A stretch of 34,365 bases of DNA from Candidatus Helarchaeota archaeon. Lineage in GTDB: Archaea; Asgardarchaeota; Lokiarchaeia; Helarchaeales; RDOG01. The translations under genes were made by a program, and so were the position numbers. The stretch spans positions 1-34,365 of the forward strand of contig JALGVI010000032.1 of the NCBI GenBank assembly GCA_029838215.1, written 5' to 3'. Positions 1,957 to 9,062 of the stretch are shown here, in pieces. Each line of letters opens with the position of its first letter. Positions within the stretch are counted from its first letter, which is position 1. The notes below the pieces were generated by a model that worked only from the letters and a program-made list of their open reading frames with translations, was not told where the DNA came from and made no database searches.

Positions 1957-4236
1957 GTGAATGAAATGGTTGATGAAATACAATTACGCGTGCAATCAAT
2001 AGATGAAAAAAGTGCCATGAGATCATGGGTACGGGTAGATCCAGAAGTCTTCCCGAAATTGAAAATCTCAACGGGAGATATTATTCAGATACGGGGCAAA
2101 AAGACGACAGGAGCCATTGTAATCCCTGCCAAAAAAGAAGATGTAAACATGAACATCATTCGAATGGATGGCCTGATCAGGCAAAATGCTCAAGCAGGTA
2201 TTGGAGATATCGTAACTGTCGCAAAAATTAAGGTTCCAAAGGCTGAAAAAATTGTTTTGGCACCTGCTGCCGAAAATATCAGAGTAAGAATTTCGGGTGA
2301 TAGCATAAAAGGACATCTCATCAATAGACCCGTTAATAAAGGTGATATCTTAAGCGTATTTCGCCAACAGAGGCAACGTTCACAATCAATGCAGTTTTCA
2401 CCTCAATTTTTCGAAGAGTTTTTAACGGGAATGCGGTCTAAAAACCCATCAATGGGAGAAATTCGATTCAAGGTCATCCAGACAGTTCCCAATCAAATCG
2501 TTCAAGTAACGGGAAATACCAAAATTGAGATAAATTCTGAAGCCGTAACCTTACCGTCGGGTGTTCCGATTGTAACATATGAAGATGTTGGAGGTCTTGA
2601 AGACGCCATTCAAAGAATCCGGGAAATGGTTGAGCTTCCATTAAAACATCCCGAACTATTTTCGGCTTTGGGGATAGATCCTCCAAAAGGAGTTCTTTTA
2701 CACGGTCCTCCAGGAACGGGAAAAACCCTACTGGCAAAAGCCGTTGCAAATGAATCAATCGCAAATTTCGAGGTCATCAATGGTCCTGAAATAATGTCCA
2801 AATTCTATGGACAATCTGAAGAAACTTTGCGTAAAAAGTTCGAAAAAGCCGAACAAAAAGCTCCCAGCATCTTATTTATTGATGAAATAGATTCAATCGC
2901 CCCAAAACGGGAGGAAGTAACGGGTGAAGTCGAGCGAAGAGTCGTTGCCCAACTTTTAGGACTGATGGATGGTCTAAAAGGTAGAGGAAATGTCATAGTA
3001 ATTGGAGCTACGAATCGACCAAATGCATTAGATCCCGCACTTCGAAGACCCGGACGATTTGATCGAGAAATTGAGCTTCCAATGCCCGATAAAAAAGGAC
3101 GTAGAGAAATCTTACAGATTCACACGCGTGGAATGCCACTACACGAAGATGTCAACCTTGAAGAAATCATTAACATCACGCACGGATTTGTTGGAGCAGA
3201 CATTGCTGCACTGGCTCGTGAAGCCGCAATGTGTTGCTTGCGAAAAATTTTACCGGAATTAAACTTGGATGAGAGGTTCATTCCACAAGAAATCCTTGAT
3301 AAACTTCGAGTTTGCAGGGAGGATTTTTTGGAAGCACGCAAGCTTGTTGAACCCAGCACCCTCCGCGAAGTAATCATCGAAATACCCAACGTAAAGTGGG
3401 ATGATATCGGAGGACTTCACGATGTCAAGGAAAAACTTCGTGAAACAATAGAATGGCCATTAAAAACGCCAGATATTTTTAAAGAAGTGGGTATTCGTCC
3501 ACCTAGAGGCATTCTCTTGTTCGGACCTCCCGGTTGCGGAAAAACCTTGTTGGCGAAAGGTGTTGCCACAGAAAGCCAAGCAAACTTCATCAGCATTAGA
3601 GGACCGGAAGTATTTTCCAAATGGGTTGGAGAAAGCGAAAAAGCCATCAGGGAAGTATTCAGAAAAGCGAGAACTGCGGCACCATCAATCATTTATTTTG
3701 ATGAACTCGATGCAGTGGCTCCGAGGCGCGGTGCTTATTCGGGCTCGCAAGTCTATGAATCTGTTTTAAATCAAATTCTTTCAGAATTCGATGGACTTGA
3801 AGACCTTAAGAATGTAGTCGTTGTTGCATCAACAAATCGTCCTGACTTGATAGATCCCGCACTATTACGCCCGGGAAGATTCGATCAGTTAATTCTGGTG
3901 CCTGCTCCTAACCGAGAAAATCGAAAGGAAATTTTTAAAGTCCATACAAAACACATGAAACTCATTGATGATGTTGATATTGATAAGATCGTGGGTGATC
4001 TTGATGGATTTAGTGGTGCAGATATCGAAAATCTCATACGAGAAGCAGGAATGGAAGCAATTCGAGATGCAAAATTAAGTAATAAACCAATAAAAGGCGT
4101 GAACTCGATGCATTTTGAACGAGCTGCAAGAGCAGTACACGCAACCCTTACCCCAGACATCATCAAAAAATATGAAAACATGTATAAGACACTAAAATCC
4201 AAACGCGCTGCCGTAAAAGAATCGCACTATGCCTAA
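1957..4236 (+). CDS. cdc48: Cdc48/VCP (VAT) AAA+ ATPase
   Basis: N domain ([12 protein letters not shown]), two AAA modules with Walker A GPPGTGKT and GPPGCGKT, Walker B FIDEID and YFDELD, and [12 protein letters not shown] / LLRPGRFD. Ends in HYA. True start may be the ATG at 1966. Confidence 0.97.
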
Positions 4237-5573: not shown

Positions 5574-6365
5574 TTGGAAGAAAAAAACGTGTCTTTTGAG
5601 AAGATTTACGGCAAGGACCTCGTAACAATCGATAAAAATCAGCTAAAAAAGCCAATCTCTGTACACGGCATGCCCGGAATGGGAATGGCAGGGAAAAATG
5701 CTGTAGATTTATTTATAAAAGTATTACCGAATGTACGGAAAATACATGAGATATATTCATCGGCTTTCCCCAGTCACGTCGCCATTTTGAATGATGGTTC
5801 CATCAGACCTCCAAAAATAGATATCTATCTTGCGAAAAATCCCGAAGGAAATCATGATTTCATATTGGTTACAGGCGACTTTCAGCCAAGTAGCGCCACG
5901 GGTACGAATGTTCTTTCTTCTTACATCGTAAATTATCTAAACCAGTTAGGAATAACGCAAATCATTTCTTTAGCCGCAACACCTGTAGCGGCACCAAAAG
6001 AAAAACCAAAAGTATTCATGACTGCCACTTCAGACGATTTAATACCCCCGTTTCGTGAATTAGGCGTCAAGCCCTTTATCAAAGGAGTCATTACGGGAAT
6101 GAATGGAACGGTCCCTGCCATGGGAAAGCTTGAACACGACATGGATGGGGTCATCCTTTTATCAGAAACCTTTCCTCAATTCATGGAGGATGCTAAAGCG
6201 AGCGTTTCACTCGTTAGAATACTTGAATCATATTTATTACTTGAAGTGAATACCGAAGAACTTGAAGAAAAGGGAGAAAAAAATCTCAAGATCTACGAAA
6301 AAATGATGAATAAAAAACGAAAACAATCAAAACGTCGCGGACGAAGCGTGGGATACATAAGTTGA
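5574..6365 (+). CDS. PAC2-family proteasome assembly chaperone-like protein
   Basis: GMPGMGMAGKNAV, LVTGDFQP, GVITGMNG, LSET..DAKAS and a C-terminal GYIS match archaeal PAC2/Pba-type proteins. Confidence 0.82.
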   Translation: MEEKNVSFEKIYGKDLVTIDKNQLKKPISVHGMPGMGMAGKNAVDLFIKVLPNVRKIHEIYSSAFPSHVAILNDGSIRPPKIDIYLAKNPEGNHDFILVTGDFQPSSATGTNVLSSYIVNYLNQLGITQIISLAATPVAAPKEKPKVFMTATSDDLIPPFRELGVKPFIKGVITGMNGTVPAMGKLEHDMDGVILLSETFPQFMEDAKASVSLVRILESYLLLEVNTEELEEKGEKNLKIYEKMMNKKRKQSKRRGRSVGYIS

Positions 6366-6380: not shown

Positions 6381-6872
6381 ATGCCAAATAAGATATTTCA
6401 AAACGAAGAATATCATGTTCAAATAGACTATTTACCCGAAAACTTCATCCTACAAGAACTTTCAGGAAACAAAGAAGAAGGCAAGATAATTTTTGAGTCT
6501 CGAGAAATCCTCGATGAATCCTATGGCGCATACATCAAATTTGAATATTCATGGAACACGATAGAATTTGATTTTCGACTTTCAGATGGTGATCTGATCG
6601 ACGAAATCGACAGGCAATATCAACGACTCAGAATAAACTCAATTGAGCGAAATGGAGAATATATTAACACGCACTATAATCAGTACATAACAGGTTCCAG
6701 AATTATCGTTCAAAAAGAGATTCAATACCCCACGGTAGAAATCAATGGTGTTTTCTACTGCGAACATTCTGAGAGACAATTCAATTATCGATTCATGATT
6801 TACCGTAAGATTTATGAAGAGTGGAAAAATACTCTTTTAGAAATCATTCATGCATTTAAATGCCATTTTTAG
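6381..6872 (+). CDS. Hypothetical protein, possibly PsbP/DcrB/Mog1-like fold
   Basis: 163-aa ORF in line with its neighbours. The N-terminal IDYLPENF strand-turn and C-terminal helix-strand (WKNTLLEIIHAFK) resemble the PsbP-like pattern. Fold call is tentative. Confidence 0.6.
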   Translation: MPNKIFQNEEYHVQIDYLPENFILQELSGNKEEGKIIFESREILDESYGAYIKFEYSWNTIEFDFRLSDGDLIDEIDRQYQRLRINSIERNGEYINTHYNQYITGSRIIVQKEIQYPTVEINGVFYCEHSERQFNYRFMIYRKIYEEWKNTLLEIIHAFKCHF

Positions 6873-7000: not shown

Positions 7001-8344
7001 ATGCCAAAAAAGAGCAACCTCGAAACGGAAATGCTTGAAATACCAACTTCAACAGATTTTCCTAATGTAATGTCCCCTAAACGCATTTATTTCAGTAAAA
7101 TCAAGAATGGAACCAAATATCGCATTGGTAAGGGATTTAGCCTTAAAGAAATTAAGGCCGCCGCCATTCCGCTTGATATAGTCATGAAGTATAAATCACG
7201 AGTTCCAATTGATAGACGAAGAAAGACCCTTCATGATGAAAACGTTGCATATCTTGGAAAGTTATTTCGGGAAATATTAAAACAAAGGGAAAGCAGACTG
7301 GAAGAAATTAAAAAAATAGATAAAAAGAAAAAAGAACTAGTCAAAAACCTGACAAAAAGTCTTGGCATATCAAAAAAGGAAGCACTTGCAATTACAGAAG
7401 CGGGAGTTAAATCTGTTGAACAATTAGTAAATGAAGATCCAAAGGTTTTAGCTAAGGATTTAGGAATTAAAACAAGTGACGTTAACAAGTTAATAAAAGA
7501 AGCAAGGCGCGTGACAGTTCTTAAAGAATTGGAAGATGCAATTAAGAACTTGACCCAACTTAAATCAATAAATGCTTCAAAAGCTAAAGAATTGGCAGCT
7601 CTTGGAATCGTAAATATTGAGATTCTTGCAGAAGAAGTCCCTGAAGAGCTTGCAACAGAGATGGGCTATGCTGAAAAGATGACTTCAAACTGGATAAAAG
7701 AAGCCCGAGAAATGCTTGGATCTAAAACAAAGAAAAAAGAAATTGAAAGATTGAAGCCAGTTGCTAAAAAAGGAAAAAAGCATAAAGTCGAAGAGGCAGG
7801 ACTGAAAGACATCCTAAATAAACAGGAAATAAGAGCACTTGCAGATATTGAAGTAAAAACACTCAAGGATCTTGCAGAAGAAAACCCTGACGAAATTTCT
7901 TCGATTTTGGGCATAAATAAAAATATTACTCAAAAGTGGATAAACGATGCCAGACGGTTGCTGGGTCTCGAACTCGTTACGGAAGTAAAGAAACCTAAGA
8001 AGCAAAAATACGAAGAGATAGACCAGCTAATCGAAAAAAGTTTCGAAATATCCCTTGATTTAGAAGAGGAAGAAGAAATAAGTTCTGAAGAAATTAAAGA
8101 AACAATGGAAGAAATAAAAACCGTTGCTAAAAAAGTAGAAGACGAAAAAGATGAACTAAAAAAGACCGTTGCTTTGCTTGTTAAAGTACCCAGTCTGGGA
8201 AAAGCATCTGCTGAAAAACTGTATAAAGCAGGAGTTCGGACCATCGAGGATTTGATTCATGCAAACGCTGAGGAACTGGCAGAAAAAAGCAAGATTTCCA
8301 TCAAAAAGATTCAAGTTTTCATTGAAAATGCTTCAAATTTATGA
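7001..8344 (+). CDS. rpl13e: Ribosomal protein eL13 domain fused to four tandem (HhH)2 modules
   Basis: RIGKGFSLKEIKAAAI...VPIDRRRKTLHDENV is the eL13 signature. It is followed by four ~55-aa repeats such as VPSLGKASAEKLYKAGVRTIEDLIHANAEELAEKSKIS (RadA-N/NusA-AR-like HhH). Confidence 0.85.
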   Translation: MPKKSNLETEMLEIPTSTDFPNVMSPKRIYFSKIKNGTKYRIGKGFSLKEIKAAAIPLDIVMKYKSRVPIDRRRKTLHDENVAYLGKLFREILKQRESRLEEIKKIDKKKKELVKNLTKSLGISKKEALAITEAGVKSVEQLVNEDPKVLAKDLGIKTSDVNKLIKEARRVTVLKELEDAIKNLTQLKSINASKAKELAALGIVNIEILAEEVPEELATEMGYAEKMTSNWIKEAREMLGSKTKKKEIERLKPVAKKGKKHKVEEAGLKDILNKQEIRALADIEVKTLKDLAEENPDEISSILGINKNITQKWINDARRLLGLELVTEVKKPKKQKYEEIDQLIEKSFEISLDLEEEEEISSEEIKETMEEIKTVAKKVEDEKDELKKTVALLVKVPSLGKASAEKLYKAGVRTIEDLIHANAEELAEKSKISIKKIQVFIENASNL

Positions 8345-8381: not shown

Positions 8382-9062
8382 TTATTTACTTTCTATTAAT
8401 TTTTTATATACTTCTTTCTTTTTGGCATCCATGGTCAAAAGCTCTCTCGGCGCATTTTCATCATCAATTTCATTTAAAATGTTCATCAGCATTTCTTTTA
8501 ATTCGTCCAACGTGGCATCCTCATGATACGCTTCTTTCAATAGACTCATTGCCTTGTTTTCATCGTTTCCTACAGCTATTGCTTTAACTTTAAATTTGGC
8601 TCCACTAGGTTCAATCAAATGAATGGATGGACCAGAAGAATCGATTCCCGCAAAAATAAGGCTTACACCAAAAGGTCTACCGCCAAATTGAGTAACTTGT
8701 TGCATTTTATTGCTAATTTTCCAAGCCAAAACATCGAGATCGGGATCTTCATTATAATACAGCCGCTGTACTTGAGCCTCAATTCGTGCTTGATTTATCA
8801 AAACTCTCGAATCGGCTAACAGACCCGAAAATGCTGTAAAAATAAATTCTTCAATTTGAAAAATTTTCTCATTATTCTCGTATAATGGATTAAAACTATT
8901 ATACTGTGATAGAACTACCACACCTGCATTTGACCGTGCAGCCAAAACAAGAGACCCGCGCTTCACGGCTTCTCGTGCATACTCTATCTGATGAATTCTG
9001 CCGTCAGGACTGAACATGGTAGCAATCCTGTCATACCCTCCTAACCGTCCAACATCAAACAT
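8382..9062 (-). CDS. psmA: 20S proteasome alpha-type subunit, divergent paralog
   Basis: GYDRIATMFSPDGRIHQIEYAREAVKRG, SGLLADSRVL, GGRPFGVSLIFAG. 226 aa with a degenerate C-terminal third. Confidence 0.93.
   Translation of the reverse strand: MFDVGRLGGYDRIATMFSPDGRIHQIEYAREAVKRGSLVLAARSNAGVVVLSQYNSFNPLYENNEKIFQIEEFIFTAFSGLLADSRVLINQARIEAQVQRLYYNEDPDLDVLAWKISNKMQQVTQFGGRPFGVSLIFAGIDSSGPSIHLIEPSGAKFKVKAIAVGNDENKAMSLLKEAYHEDATLDELKEMLMNILNEIDDENAPRELLTMDAKKKEVYKKLIESK

Follow-up and report, generated by a model that had tools for sequence, protein, structure and literature searches.

A ribosomal protein eL13 with four helix-hairpin-helix modules encoded by a Candidatus Helarchaeota archaeon

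Helix-hairpin-helix domains of the (HhH)2 type classically hold B-form DNA, and RNA binding by domains of this type is uncommon. Several (HhH)2 domains can occur on one chain, as in Methanopyrus topoisomerase V, an enzyme on which twelve of them are tightly packed. A module of the same kind forms the N-domain of RadA/Rad51, and the E. coli transcription factor NusA, which is not a ribosomal protein, carries a tandem of acidic five-helix (HhH)2 repeats, AR1 and AR2 (1u9l, 2jzb, 8y5l), that bind lambda N and the RNA polymerase (RNAP) alpha-CTD according to the titles of the PDB entries. Among ribosomal proteins, haloarchaeal eL32-HhH is a fusion in which a single HhH module stands at the N-terminus.

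Extensions of ribosomal proteins usually stabilise the subunit by docking on rRNA or on other proteins. Canonical eL13 lacks HhH domains and comprises 70-110 aa in its short Thermoproteota forms, 157 aa in the solved chain 9e6q AH of P. calidifontis and about 200 aa in eukaryotes, in which N-terminal and helical C-terminal extensions stand in place of HhH. There are also eL13-HhH proteins of 130-340 aa, with one or two modules, in other Asgard archaea, some Bathyarchaeia and a class to which a MAG with the label Thermococci belongs; these join the same core, through a Lys-rich linker, to their HHH_5 module or modules at the C-terminus. Databases already label eL13-HhH proteins as 'ribosomal protein L13e' or 'helix-hairpin-helix domain-containing protein'. 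A description of the archaeal eL13-HhH architecture was not found in the full-text literature, with subscription journals outside this coverage, and we do not claim that it is undescribed. Yeast eL13 sits at rRNA domain I on the solvent side, where it clusters with eL8, eL15 and eL36 (PMC4671574). The one Asgard ribosome map that was found is an 11.7 Å subtomogram average that is silent on eL13 (PMC9834061).

The window analysed here, a stretch of 34,365 nucleotides from a Candidatus Helarchaeota archaeon, contains a single uninterrupted open reading frame (ORF) of 447 aa plus stop, which begins with ATG at 7001 and ends at 8344 on the plus strand. A preliminary description had read it as eL13 followed, in one frame, by four (HhH)2 modules, and the ORF and its Pfam and NCBIfam matches bear this out: the protein is almost certainly the organism's only large-subunit eL13 orthologue, bearing four conserved (HhH)2 modules (R1 to R4). 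For its tail we infer, with a probability of about 0.5, the role of a multivalent tether that is anchored on the ribosome and holds duplex nucleic acid, proteins or both. The features of the locus are as follows.

5574 to 6365, plus strand: PAC2-family gene, upstream of the eL13 gene
6381 to 6872, plus strand: gene for a 163-aa protein with no Pfam family and with invariant His/Cys columns
7088 to 7282, plus strand: eL13 core (aa 30-94), motif G-x-G-F-S...E...D-x-R-R...N, from PF01294, PRK12277 and alignment A1
7235 to 7363, plus strand: Lys/Glu-rich long helix (aa 79-121) between the core and R1, AF2 pLDDT 81-91
7364 to 7516, plus strand: HhH module R1 (aa 122-172), with HHH_5 at 7349-7510
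7517 to 7564, plus strand: 16-aa connector between R1 and R2, predicted by AF2 as one unbroken helix that links the two
7565 to 7720, plus strand: HhH module R2 (aa 189-240), net charge -5, first hairpin degenerate
7721 to 7798, plus strand: linker between R2 and R3 (aa 241-266), basic and disordered, net charge +7, pI 10.2, AF2 pLDDT 52-56
7799 to 7966, plus strand: HhH module R3 (aa 267-322), mildly acidic
7967 to 8176, plus strand: linker between R3 and R4 (aa 323-392), net charge -10, pI 4.5, with LEEEEEISSEE, partly helical
8177 to 8341, plus strand: HhH module R4 (aa 393-447), terminal and basic, best HHH_5 stretch at residues 392-438

The identity of the N-terminal part had been made to depend on a match to the eL13 model, and this match passes its threshold narrowly: Pfam Ribosomal_L13e (PF01294) scores a marginal 25.1 bits against a gathering threshold of 24.9 over residues 34-120. 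The same model reaches 26.9 bits at this locus in a six-frame genome scan and 31-44.5 bits with orthologues of the same order. NCBIfam PRK12277 matches residues 30-94 (window about 7088-7282) with an E-value of 1.6e-11, its 43.7 bits lying below the equivalog cut-off of 96 for a model of 83 positions; the missed cut-off weakens an annotation-pipeline call and leaves homology to eL13 intact. The window protein keeps every residue that is invariant in alignment A1 (21 sequences), namely G43, G45, S47, E50, D71, R74 and N81. Chains of solved ribosomes are recovered by phmmer (7olc_LL, E 1.4e-4; 9e6q_AH, E 4.8e-4), and the A1 family profile finds solved eL13 chains of P. calidifontis (1.1e-17) and of eukaryotes (1e-16 to 1e-12). 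Foldseek with the AF2 model returns mammalian eL13 (6p5i_AL) at a probability of 0.99. The core is homologous to that of canonical eL13, and the two probably share the same large-subunit anchoring site. A second, short eL13 was sought in the genome, which is 94.3% complete, and two HMMs and the window protein as query found this one locus.

Could the fusion be an artefact, either an assembly chimera or a short eL13 and a separate HhH-repeat gene mis-called as one protein? The marginal HMM score is the point in favour of such an error, which is nevertheless hardly credible. Three to four positionally orthologous modules occur in all seven sampled genomes of the order (Helarchaeales/Helarchaeota), which are independent assemblies, making a chimera very unlikely; full-length homologues of 416-473 aa have the same architecture, which also recurs on numerous metagenome contigs that are independent of each other and differ in source. 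The junction between the long helix and R1 is conserved in length and sequence, and the genome has no other eL13. There is no DNA-level repeat under the four modules and the GC content is even along the ORF (0.32-0.37); the modules are old, diverged duplications and not an assembly or repeat artefact.

The module boundaries given in the preliminary description (7346-7510, 7547-7714, 7799-7960 and 8174-8341) agree with a six-frame genome scan with HHH_5 (PF14520), which places them at 7349-7510, 7544-7711, 7829-7954 and 8174-8314; two of the modules exceed the cut-off alone and two fall below it. On the whole protein, HHH_5 gives an E-value of 7.8e-23 and 81.2 bits against 27, in four stretches, and R1 to R4 can be aligned with each other. 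Among orthologues, mean pairwise identity is 0.61 in the core, 0.44-0.51 in the modules and 0.19-0.35 in the linkers.

The proximal and distal halves of the tail differ in how freely they vary. The Lys/Glu helix is of constant length (36-40 aa) throughout the order, and the connector between R1 and R2 has the same length in 17 of 17 aligned proteins; its helix is modelled at residues 158-184 of the full AF2 model and at 54-80 of a model of R1-R2, with a pLDDT of about 95. Confidence is about 90 over residues 100-240 and low within the linkers. The linker between R2 and R3 ranges from 21 to 120 aa across orthologues, and that between R3 and R4 from 14 to 96 aa with a mean pairwise identity of 0.19. 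One variable tail linker among the order's orthologues is a tandem KEKPKE-type repeat. The contrast of one basic and one acidic linker that had been claimed is confirmed by their net charges. According to these models, the helix, R1 and R2 would form a rigid stalk, with R3 and R4 on linkers of very variable length. The long flexible arm that was originally proposed therefore holds for the R3 and R4 linkers, where length variation and low model scores agree with it, and not for the stalk-like proximal half, so the whole tail is not a single flexible arm.

The hairpins have diverged as well. A canonical GxGK hairpin is retained in R4 alone, where G398, G400 and K406 are invariant in alignment A2 and K401 nearly so; R1 keeps it in part, R2 has it in a degenerate state, and R3 has lost it in the window's subclade, in which a two-residue deletion removed the GIG of the first hairpin (A2 columns 393-400). 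Family f30 lacks R3 altogether. Within the order, R4 has a net charge of 0 to +8, and R2 and R3 are acidic in every orthologue.

A different account of this tail is that it is a structural extension, in which all modules would dock on the ribosome's own rRNA, for instance at enlarged helices or expansion segments, or on ribosomal proteins close by, giving the large subunit added stability, in the manner of the long C-terminal extension of eukaryotic eL13. This would be the usual role of such extensions, and it is in keeping with the fixed lengths and high model confidence from the core through the helix to R1 and R2, with the long large-subunit (LSU) rRNA of the genome (3467 nt) and with the enlarged ES9 and ES39 of Asgard LSU rRNAs (PMC7594248). 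We nonetheless regard it as unlikely. Among close relatives, the linkers that precede R3 and R4 differ in length by a factor of five to seven and include the tandem repeat mentioned above, which is a poor fit to fixed docking sites, and module number shifts between families without a known matching change in rRNA. The additional 251 and 96 nt by which the rRNA of the window genome is longer may represent introns, and the sister genome, likewise with four modules, has an LSU rRNA of 3159 nt. A dependence of module number on rRNA size is unsupported in the two genomes compared (the order's other five are without a complete LSU rRNA); the same observation, that rRNA length does not follow module number, counts against the tether.

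That the modules are of the type found in the RadA N-domain and the NusA acidic repeats, as first proposed, is a point on which NCBIfam and structural matches agree. In AF2 models, they adopt a five-helix, two-hairpin (HhH)2 fold with an rmsd of 1.1-1.7 Å to the RadA N-domain and 1.4 Å to NusA AR1. The RadA/Rad51 N-domain is closest in sequence: RadA is the top NCBIfam match, in four stretches, and structural alignments give 35-39% identity to the modules. The likeness stops at this domain, since NF003301 is matched in its N-domain part only (66 bits against 259), no Rad51 Pfam match is found and the protein is without the recombinase ATPase core; three separate RadA paralogues are encoded in the genome. 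These three, together with Hef/XPF, Hel308 and UvrC, are DNA-transaction enzymes and make up the other HHH_5 proteins identified in the genome. Matches to topoisomerase V are weak (Foldseek E 0.07-0.4; 8df9, 8df7, 2csb, 4gfj). The eL32-HhH precedent that had been cited is real: in PRK12766 (238 positions), both the RadA N-domain and R4 correspond to positions 4-60, and ordinary eL32 corresponds to positions 108-229. It concerns a different ribosomal protein, and the window protein matches only the HhH part of this model, at 15.3 bits against 239; the genome's eL32 is a separate frame of 150 aa.

In structure R1 and R2 are best matched by NusA, and the likeness goes no further, as the NusA repeat model TIGR01954 reaches 19.9 bits against a cut-off of 48.15. 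R1 superposes on AR1 (1u9l) with a VIA Z of 12.2 and an rmsd of 1.4 Å over 70 residues. For R2, Z is 11.1 to the Pol-theta helicase-like domain 5 and 9.5 to NusA AR2 in the entry with the RNAP alpha-CTD (2jzb), and the best match of the R1-R2 tandem is NusA from a complex that couples transcription to translation (8y5l, E 3.6e-5). These matches invite the view that the tail is a protein-recruitment platform, its modules acting in the way of NusA acidic repeats or of XPF/ERCC1-type HhH pairs and binding RNAP subunits, other factors with HhH domains, quality-control or proteasome components, or the HhH modules of neighbouring ribosomes, and so coupling ribosomes to transcription or clustering them. 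The acidic R2 and R3 with their degenerate hairpins would suit this role, as would the slightly acidic average charge of single-module forms, the 141-aa stand-alone tandem-HhH paralogue encoded in the genome, and the PAC2 and proteasome genes near eL13 in several families. The relative orientation of R1 and R2, however, departs from that of NusA (rmsd about 11 Å over 141 columns), a common fold is no proof of common function, and the gene neighbourhood is inconsistent: proteasome genes beside eL13 are retained neither in the sister genome nor in families f29 and f30. A protein-recruitment platform is a somewhat unlikely reading.

In the tether that we favour, the conserved core would anchor eL13 in the 50S, as eL13 does elsewhere, and the long helix with R1 and R2 would make up a stalk of fixed geometry from which R3 and R4 are suspended by charged linkers that are free to vary in length. 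The canonical phosphate-binding hairpin of R4 and the Lys-rich linker would most likely grip the duplex backbone with no sequence preference, candidate targets being rRNA helices, mRNA or DNA near the ribosome, and nucleoid DNA. The inner modules, which are acidic and degenerate, would more likely be spacers or sites of protein or HhH-HhH docking, like the NusA acidic repeats. Module number (0-4) would be tuned per lineage, with the maximum seen in the window's order.

Several comparisons point towards nucleic acid as a ligand of the tether, among them the GxGK of R4, the likeness to RadA, the DNA enzymes that share HHH_5 in the genome, and the position of GxG hairpins, which are present in 53% of terminal and 9% of inner modules (113 and 69 modules). 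The matches to AR1 and AR2 (Z 12.2 and 9.5) and the acidity of R2 and R3 would instead suggest protein docking, and by analogy the best structural matches argue against a nucleic-acid tether, given that the NusA acidic repeats bind proteins rather than nucleic acid. The charge pattern is not general: terminal modules have a median net charge of 0, and single-module forms one of -2, by which a generally basic terminal module is rejected; hairpin retention is the one trait that differs, and the basic R4 is limited to the window's order. The marginal Pfam score (25.1 against 24.9) and the missed PRK12277 cut-off (43.7 against 96) also weigh against this reading.

The neighbouring genes were considered for possible partners. 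The nearby Cdc48 had been offered as one, a tie that conservation does not support; the neighbours that are kept are the PAC2-family gene, which families f1 and f29 likewise have upstream of eL13, and the gene of the 163-aa protein, which forms a conserved pair with eL13 within the class. A predicted complex of full eL13 with this neighbour scored 0.00, a value that counts neither for nor against binding. A more far-reaching proposal, which we hold to be quite improbable, is that the HhH arm is a built-in coupling device, anchored in the 50S, that would hold translating ribosomes on DNA, on the machinery of transcription or against one another, with module number setting the avidity of each lineage and the presumably co-transcribed 163-aa His/Cys protein as a new ribosome-associated partner.

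If the tail protrudes and binds DNA, RNA or proteins, it would represent a new way to position or couple archaeal ribosomes, and cultured species with one module would then offer cryo-EM and binding assays something definite to aim at. A tail that does no more than pack on rRNA would be one more example of accretion at the ribosome surface.

The fusion is not peculiar to this genome. Within the phylum, families differ in the number of HhH modules that eL13 carries, which is 0, 1, 2, 3 or 4, and one-module forms also occur outside it, in some Bathyarchaeia and in the class with the 'Thermococci'-labelled MAG. In Lokiarchaeia, a class with cultured members, the main family sampled has the one-module form. 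Since one-module fusions are common among Asgard archaea and certain archaea of other groups, the four-module protein is an expanded variant. The three- to four-module state is seen only in the window's order, and the C-terminus of the window protein has been lengthened by serial gain of (HhH)2 domains of the RadA-N-domain/NusA-AR type. The terminal module of the one- and two-module proteins clusters with that of the window protein in the module tree; the latter differs in its four modules, the modelled rigid tandem of R1 and R2, and the acidic linker. The expectation that archaeal eL13 is normally under about 100 aa holds for most sampled Thermoproteota and fails for the phylum itself, in which the protein is mostly 145-300 aa because one or two HhH modules are already present.

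A search for longer fused forms of eL13 (784-2235 aa) found none, which is weak evidence, and a word-based search for shorter forms found one protein only. Matches of 800-2236 aa to the eL13-core profile are spurious, being bacterial IcmE/DotG-type proteins with AGFSAxELK repeats. The eL13 C-terminus is a recurrent site of tail growth, a hot spot that has received from zero to four domains of a nucleic-acid type by lineage, with the highest number in this order: modules were duplicated independently in family f17, and families f3, f18 and f28 have tails of other kinds. The alternative tail of family f3 has no match among PDB sequences and the Atlas, and shows a weak Pfam match to the RNase H1 N-terminal domain (20.5 bits against 21).

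The eL13 gene of the window is a single ATG-start frame without interruption, and the preliminary description of it as an eL13 that carries four HhH modules was confirmed by the ORF, by Pfam and NCBIfam, and by scanning all six frames of the genome for HHH_5, which puts the modules in agreement with the positions first proposed. The gene and its modules, here named R1 to R4, are as follows.

7001-8344, forward strand: eL13 with four HhH modules, 447 aa
7349-7510, forward strand: HHH_5 module R1
7544-7711, forward strand: HHH_5 module R2
7829-7954, forward strand: HHH_5 module R3
8174-8314, forward strand: HHH_5 module R4

In Pfam, Ribosomal_L13e matches residues 34-120 with 25.1 bits (gathering score 24.9) and HHH_5 is matched in four stretches (E 7.8e-23); in NCBIfam, the archaeal L13e model matches residues 30-94 (E 1.6e-11, under the equivalog cut-off), and the top match of the protein is the RadA N-terminal part, four times. 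R1 to R4 can be aligned with one another. GC is even along the ORF and no DNA-level repeat was found within it, so the modules are old duplications. The proposal of one basic and one acidic linker was also borne out, with a net charge of +7 between R2 and R3 and of -10 between R3 and R4, where the run LEEEEEISSEE lies.

The window protein alone matches the eL13 chains of solved ribosomes (7olc, E 1.4e-4; 9e6q chain AH, E 4.8e-4), the second being from Pyrobaculum calidifontis (bioRxiv 10.1101/2024.11.12.623245). In an alignment of 21 eL13 cores from across the phylum, the window protein among them, G-x-G-F-S, E, D-x-R-R and N are invariant, and a search with the profile built from it recovers the eL13 of P. 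calidifontis (1.1e-17) along with dozens of eukaryotic chains of the family (1e-16 to 1e-12). The AF2 core superposes on mammalian eL13 (6p5i_AL, Foldseek probability 0.99). The genome (3.6 Mb, 94% complete) was searched for a second, short eL13, a possibility raised earlier, with two HMMs and the window protein as queries, and the fused locus was the sole one found. Together these results identify the window protein as the eL13 orthologue rather than an additional paralogue accompanying a short eL13. Bacterial proteins of the IcmE/DotG type (P0012, P0014, P0020 and similar; PDB 7muc, 9ngw) also score highly with the core profile, and were set aside as false positives, since the AGFSAxELK repeats they contain resemble the GFSLxELKxAG motif.

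A protein search at near length returned eight relatives of 276-473 aa, of which seven are full-length at 416-473 aa and share the architecture of the window protein, the eighth being a 276-aa partial; source names on three of the eight point to Helarchaeales, Helarchaeota and 'Lokiarchaeota' MAGs, and one of these is already titled 'ribosomal protein L13e'. The fusion is present in all seven genomes of the window's order, with four modules in families f1 (that of the window) and f29 and three in f30. Because the fusion recurs independently in relatives, an assembly chimera is very unlikely as its source, and an artefact of any kind is extremely improbable. In an alignment of 17 orthologues, the modules are positionally orthologous, and the helix, R1, a 16-aa connector and R2 are constant in length; the linkers preceding R3 and R4 span 21-120 and 14-96 aa. 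Mean pairwise identity is 0.61 in the core, 0.44-0.51 in the modules and 0.19-0.35 in the linkers. The R2-R3 linker of one f29 protein (L037:1414-2889, genome G202) consists of about eleven tandem repeats of the KEKPKE/KEKVKEEKP type (120 aa, net +16), which shows that this linker evolves freely.

Across 201 genomes of the phylum, eL13 frames range from 70 to about 450 aa. The survey comprised a Pfam L13e scan of these genomes, followed by Pfam on ten representatives and a local module HMM, and gave the following distribution by family (f labels denote families of the phylum).

HhH modules on eL13 by family
No module: f3, f18, f21, f27, f28, part of f8
One module: f2, f5, f7, f9, f10, f16, f22, part of f8
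Two modules: f13, f17, f19, f20
Three to four modules: the window's order only

Source names of the fused proteins include Jordarchaeia/Freyarchaeota, Odinarchaeota and Promethearchaeota. Three fused genes of 202-204 aa beside the 163-aa gene treated below (L136-L138; genomes G019, G030, G065) were missed by the Pfam six-frame scan, so the Pfam model undercounts eL13 in the window's class. Beyond the phylum, single-module eL13 occurs in some Bathyarchaeia MAGs, and eL13 of 70-110 aa without HhH in most Thermoproteota sampled. In the class holding a MAG labelled 'uncultured Thermococci archaeon' (L065/L068, G209; L151-L160), eL13 was found in 33 of 81 genomes, and at seven of ten inspected loci it bears one HhH after a Lys-rich linker; according to a 2023 review, eL13 is not found in Euryarchaeota (PMC9932298).

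In the module tree (65 columns, deep forks unresolved), modules of the window's order cluster by position and the f17 pair branch together as sisters (SH-aLRT 97), which indicates an independent duplication in f17. The f3 tail is a different repeat of about 40 aa in two copies, and the tails of f18 and f28 are of yet other kinds. One f3 protein from the window's class (L056:898-1848, reverse strand, G165; 317 aa) has no HhH and a long Lys/Pro-rich spacer, and its motif, …EETGKxAIWRGKESxVYKxWLAKKK, occurs twice. Its match to the duplex-binding N-terminal domain of RNase H1 is sub-threshold (20.5 against 21 bits, Pfam), and its tail had no match in PDB sequence or Atlas searches. Given the lineage-varying modules, the f17 duplication and the other tails, the eL13 C-terminus is a recurrent site of tail growth.

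The precedent cited earlier, an HhH fusion in eL32, holds: positions 4-60 of NCBIfam PRK12766 match R4 as well as the RadA N-domain, positions 108-229 match ordinary eL32, and the model is above cut-off in one control genome. Reviews of archaeal/eukaryote-specific ribosomal proteins and of Asgard biology give presence and absence of eL13 with HhH tails unmentioned (PMC9932298, PMC12993045), and our literature search, its coverage excluding subscription journals, found no published account of the architecture. As far as found, it is widespread in sequence databases and apparently undiscussed; the four-module form appears to be an expanded variant of it, limited to the window's order.

AF2 models the full-length protein (mean pLDDT 76) with a confident core and a helix at residues 79-121, one continuous helix linking R1 to R2, low-confidence linkers (243-264 and 329-361), and a second long helix that runs into R4. 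Modelled alone, R1-R2 reach pLDDT 90.6, and their top Foldseek match is E. coli NusA in 8y5l, a complex that couples transcription to translation (E 3.6e-5 over 141 columns). With an rmsd of about 11 A over the tandem, R1 and R2 are oriented to each other differently from the NusA pair, and the protein falls short of the NCBIfam threshold for NusA repeats. Taken singly, modules superpose on the RadA N-domain with 1.1-1.7 A (35-39% identity). With VIA-align, R1 matches NusA AR1 (Z 12.2, 1.4 A over 70 residues), and R2 matches domain 5 of the Pol-theta/Hel308 type (Z 11.1), NusA AR2 (Z 9.5) and the Rad51 N-domain (Z 8.3). It is doubtful that the tail serves protein recruitment or ribosome pairing.

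The canonical hairpin is kept in full only in R4, where G398, G400 and K406 are invariant and K401 nearly so among the 17 orthologues; R1 retains part of it, that of R2 is degenerate, and in the window's subclade a deletion of two residues has removed the GIG of R3. Proteins of the order have a basic R4 and acidic R2 and R3. More widely, a GxG hairpin is found in 53% of 113 terminal modules versus 9% of 69 inner ones; net charge does not separate these two sets, and single-module forms are slightly acidic. The other identified HHH_5 proteins of the genome are DNA-transaction enzymes (three RadA paralogues, Hef/XPF, Hel308, UvrC), with a stand-alone tandem-HhH protein and two unassigned frames as exceptions. 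We infer, with a probability of about one half, a best-supported model in which the helix, R1 and R2 would form a fixed stalk and R3 and R4 would be borne on flexible charged leashes; R4, together with the Lys-rich linker, would be a non-specific binder of duplex nucleic acid, and the degenerate acidic modules may be spacers or docking sites. The stand-alone protein (G000:C146:9042-9464, L141:1465-1887; 141 aa, two HhH modules of HHH_5 and Cdd1/DUF4332 type) is the closest R1-R2 paralogue, with about 30% identity over eL13 residues 94-242.

Yeast eL13 sits on the solvent side, in the eL8/eL13/eL15/eL36 cluster at rRNA domain I (PMC4671574). A purely structural tail that docks on rRNA is improbable. 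The sole Asgard ribosome map found, an 11.7 A subtomogram average, was read in terms of ES9/ES39 (PMC9834061; ES background in PMC7594248). The LSU rRNA of the window genome measures 3467 nt (G000:C165:55169-58635, L119) versus 3159 nt in the sister genome (G206:C5:105496-108654, L120). The extra length sits in two insertions, one of 251 nt near position 2105 and one of 96 nt near 2902, which may be introns or expansion segments.

The neighbouring genes are as follows.

1957-4236: Cdc48, upstream of eL13
Between Cdc48 and the PAC2-family gene: DUF1015 gene, upstream of eL13
5574-6365, forward strand: PAC2-family gene (proteasome assembly chaperone type), upstream of eL13
6381-6872, forward strand: gene of a 163-aa protein, upstream of eL13
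8382-9770, reverse strand: proteasome alpha and beta, downstream of eL13 and convergent

The suggested tie to the nearby Cdc48 gains no support from conservation of the neighbourhood. Neither the sister genome nor f29 and f30 retain the proteasome adjacency; proteasome beta adjoins eL13 divergently in 11 of 11 f13 loci (within L010-L030). In f1 and f29 (L034, L035, L037), eL13, or the 163-aa gene followed by eL13, is closely preceded by the PAC2-family gene. Homologues of the 163-aa protein, for which no Pfam family was found, occur in 65 of the 81 genomes of the window's class; the gene is directly upstream of eL13 in f1, and in f2 it is the next ORF, 37-150 nt downstream of the fused eL13 on the same strand, at 17 of 18 fetched loci (L121-L138), with further instances noted at L034, L056, L058 and L062. 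The two form a conserved gene pair in the class, and the 163-aa protein is a candidate ribosome-associated factor. Because H98, C127 and H162 are invariant and H122 and C161 nearly so, its alignment columns suggest a putative metal site.
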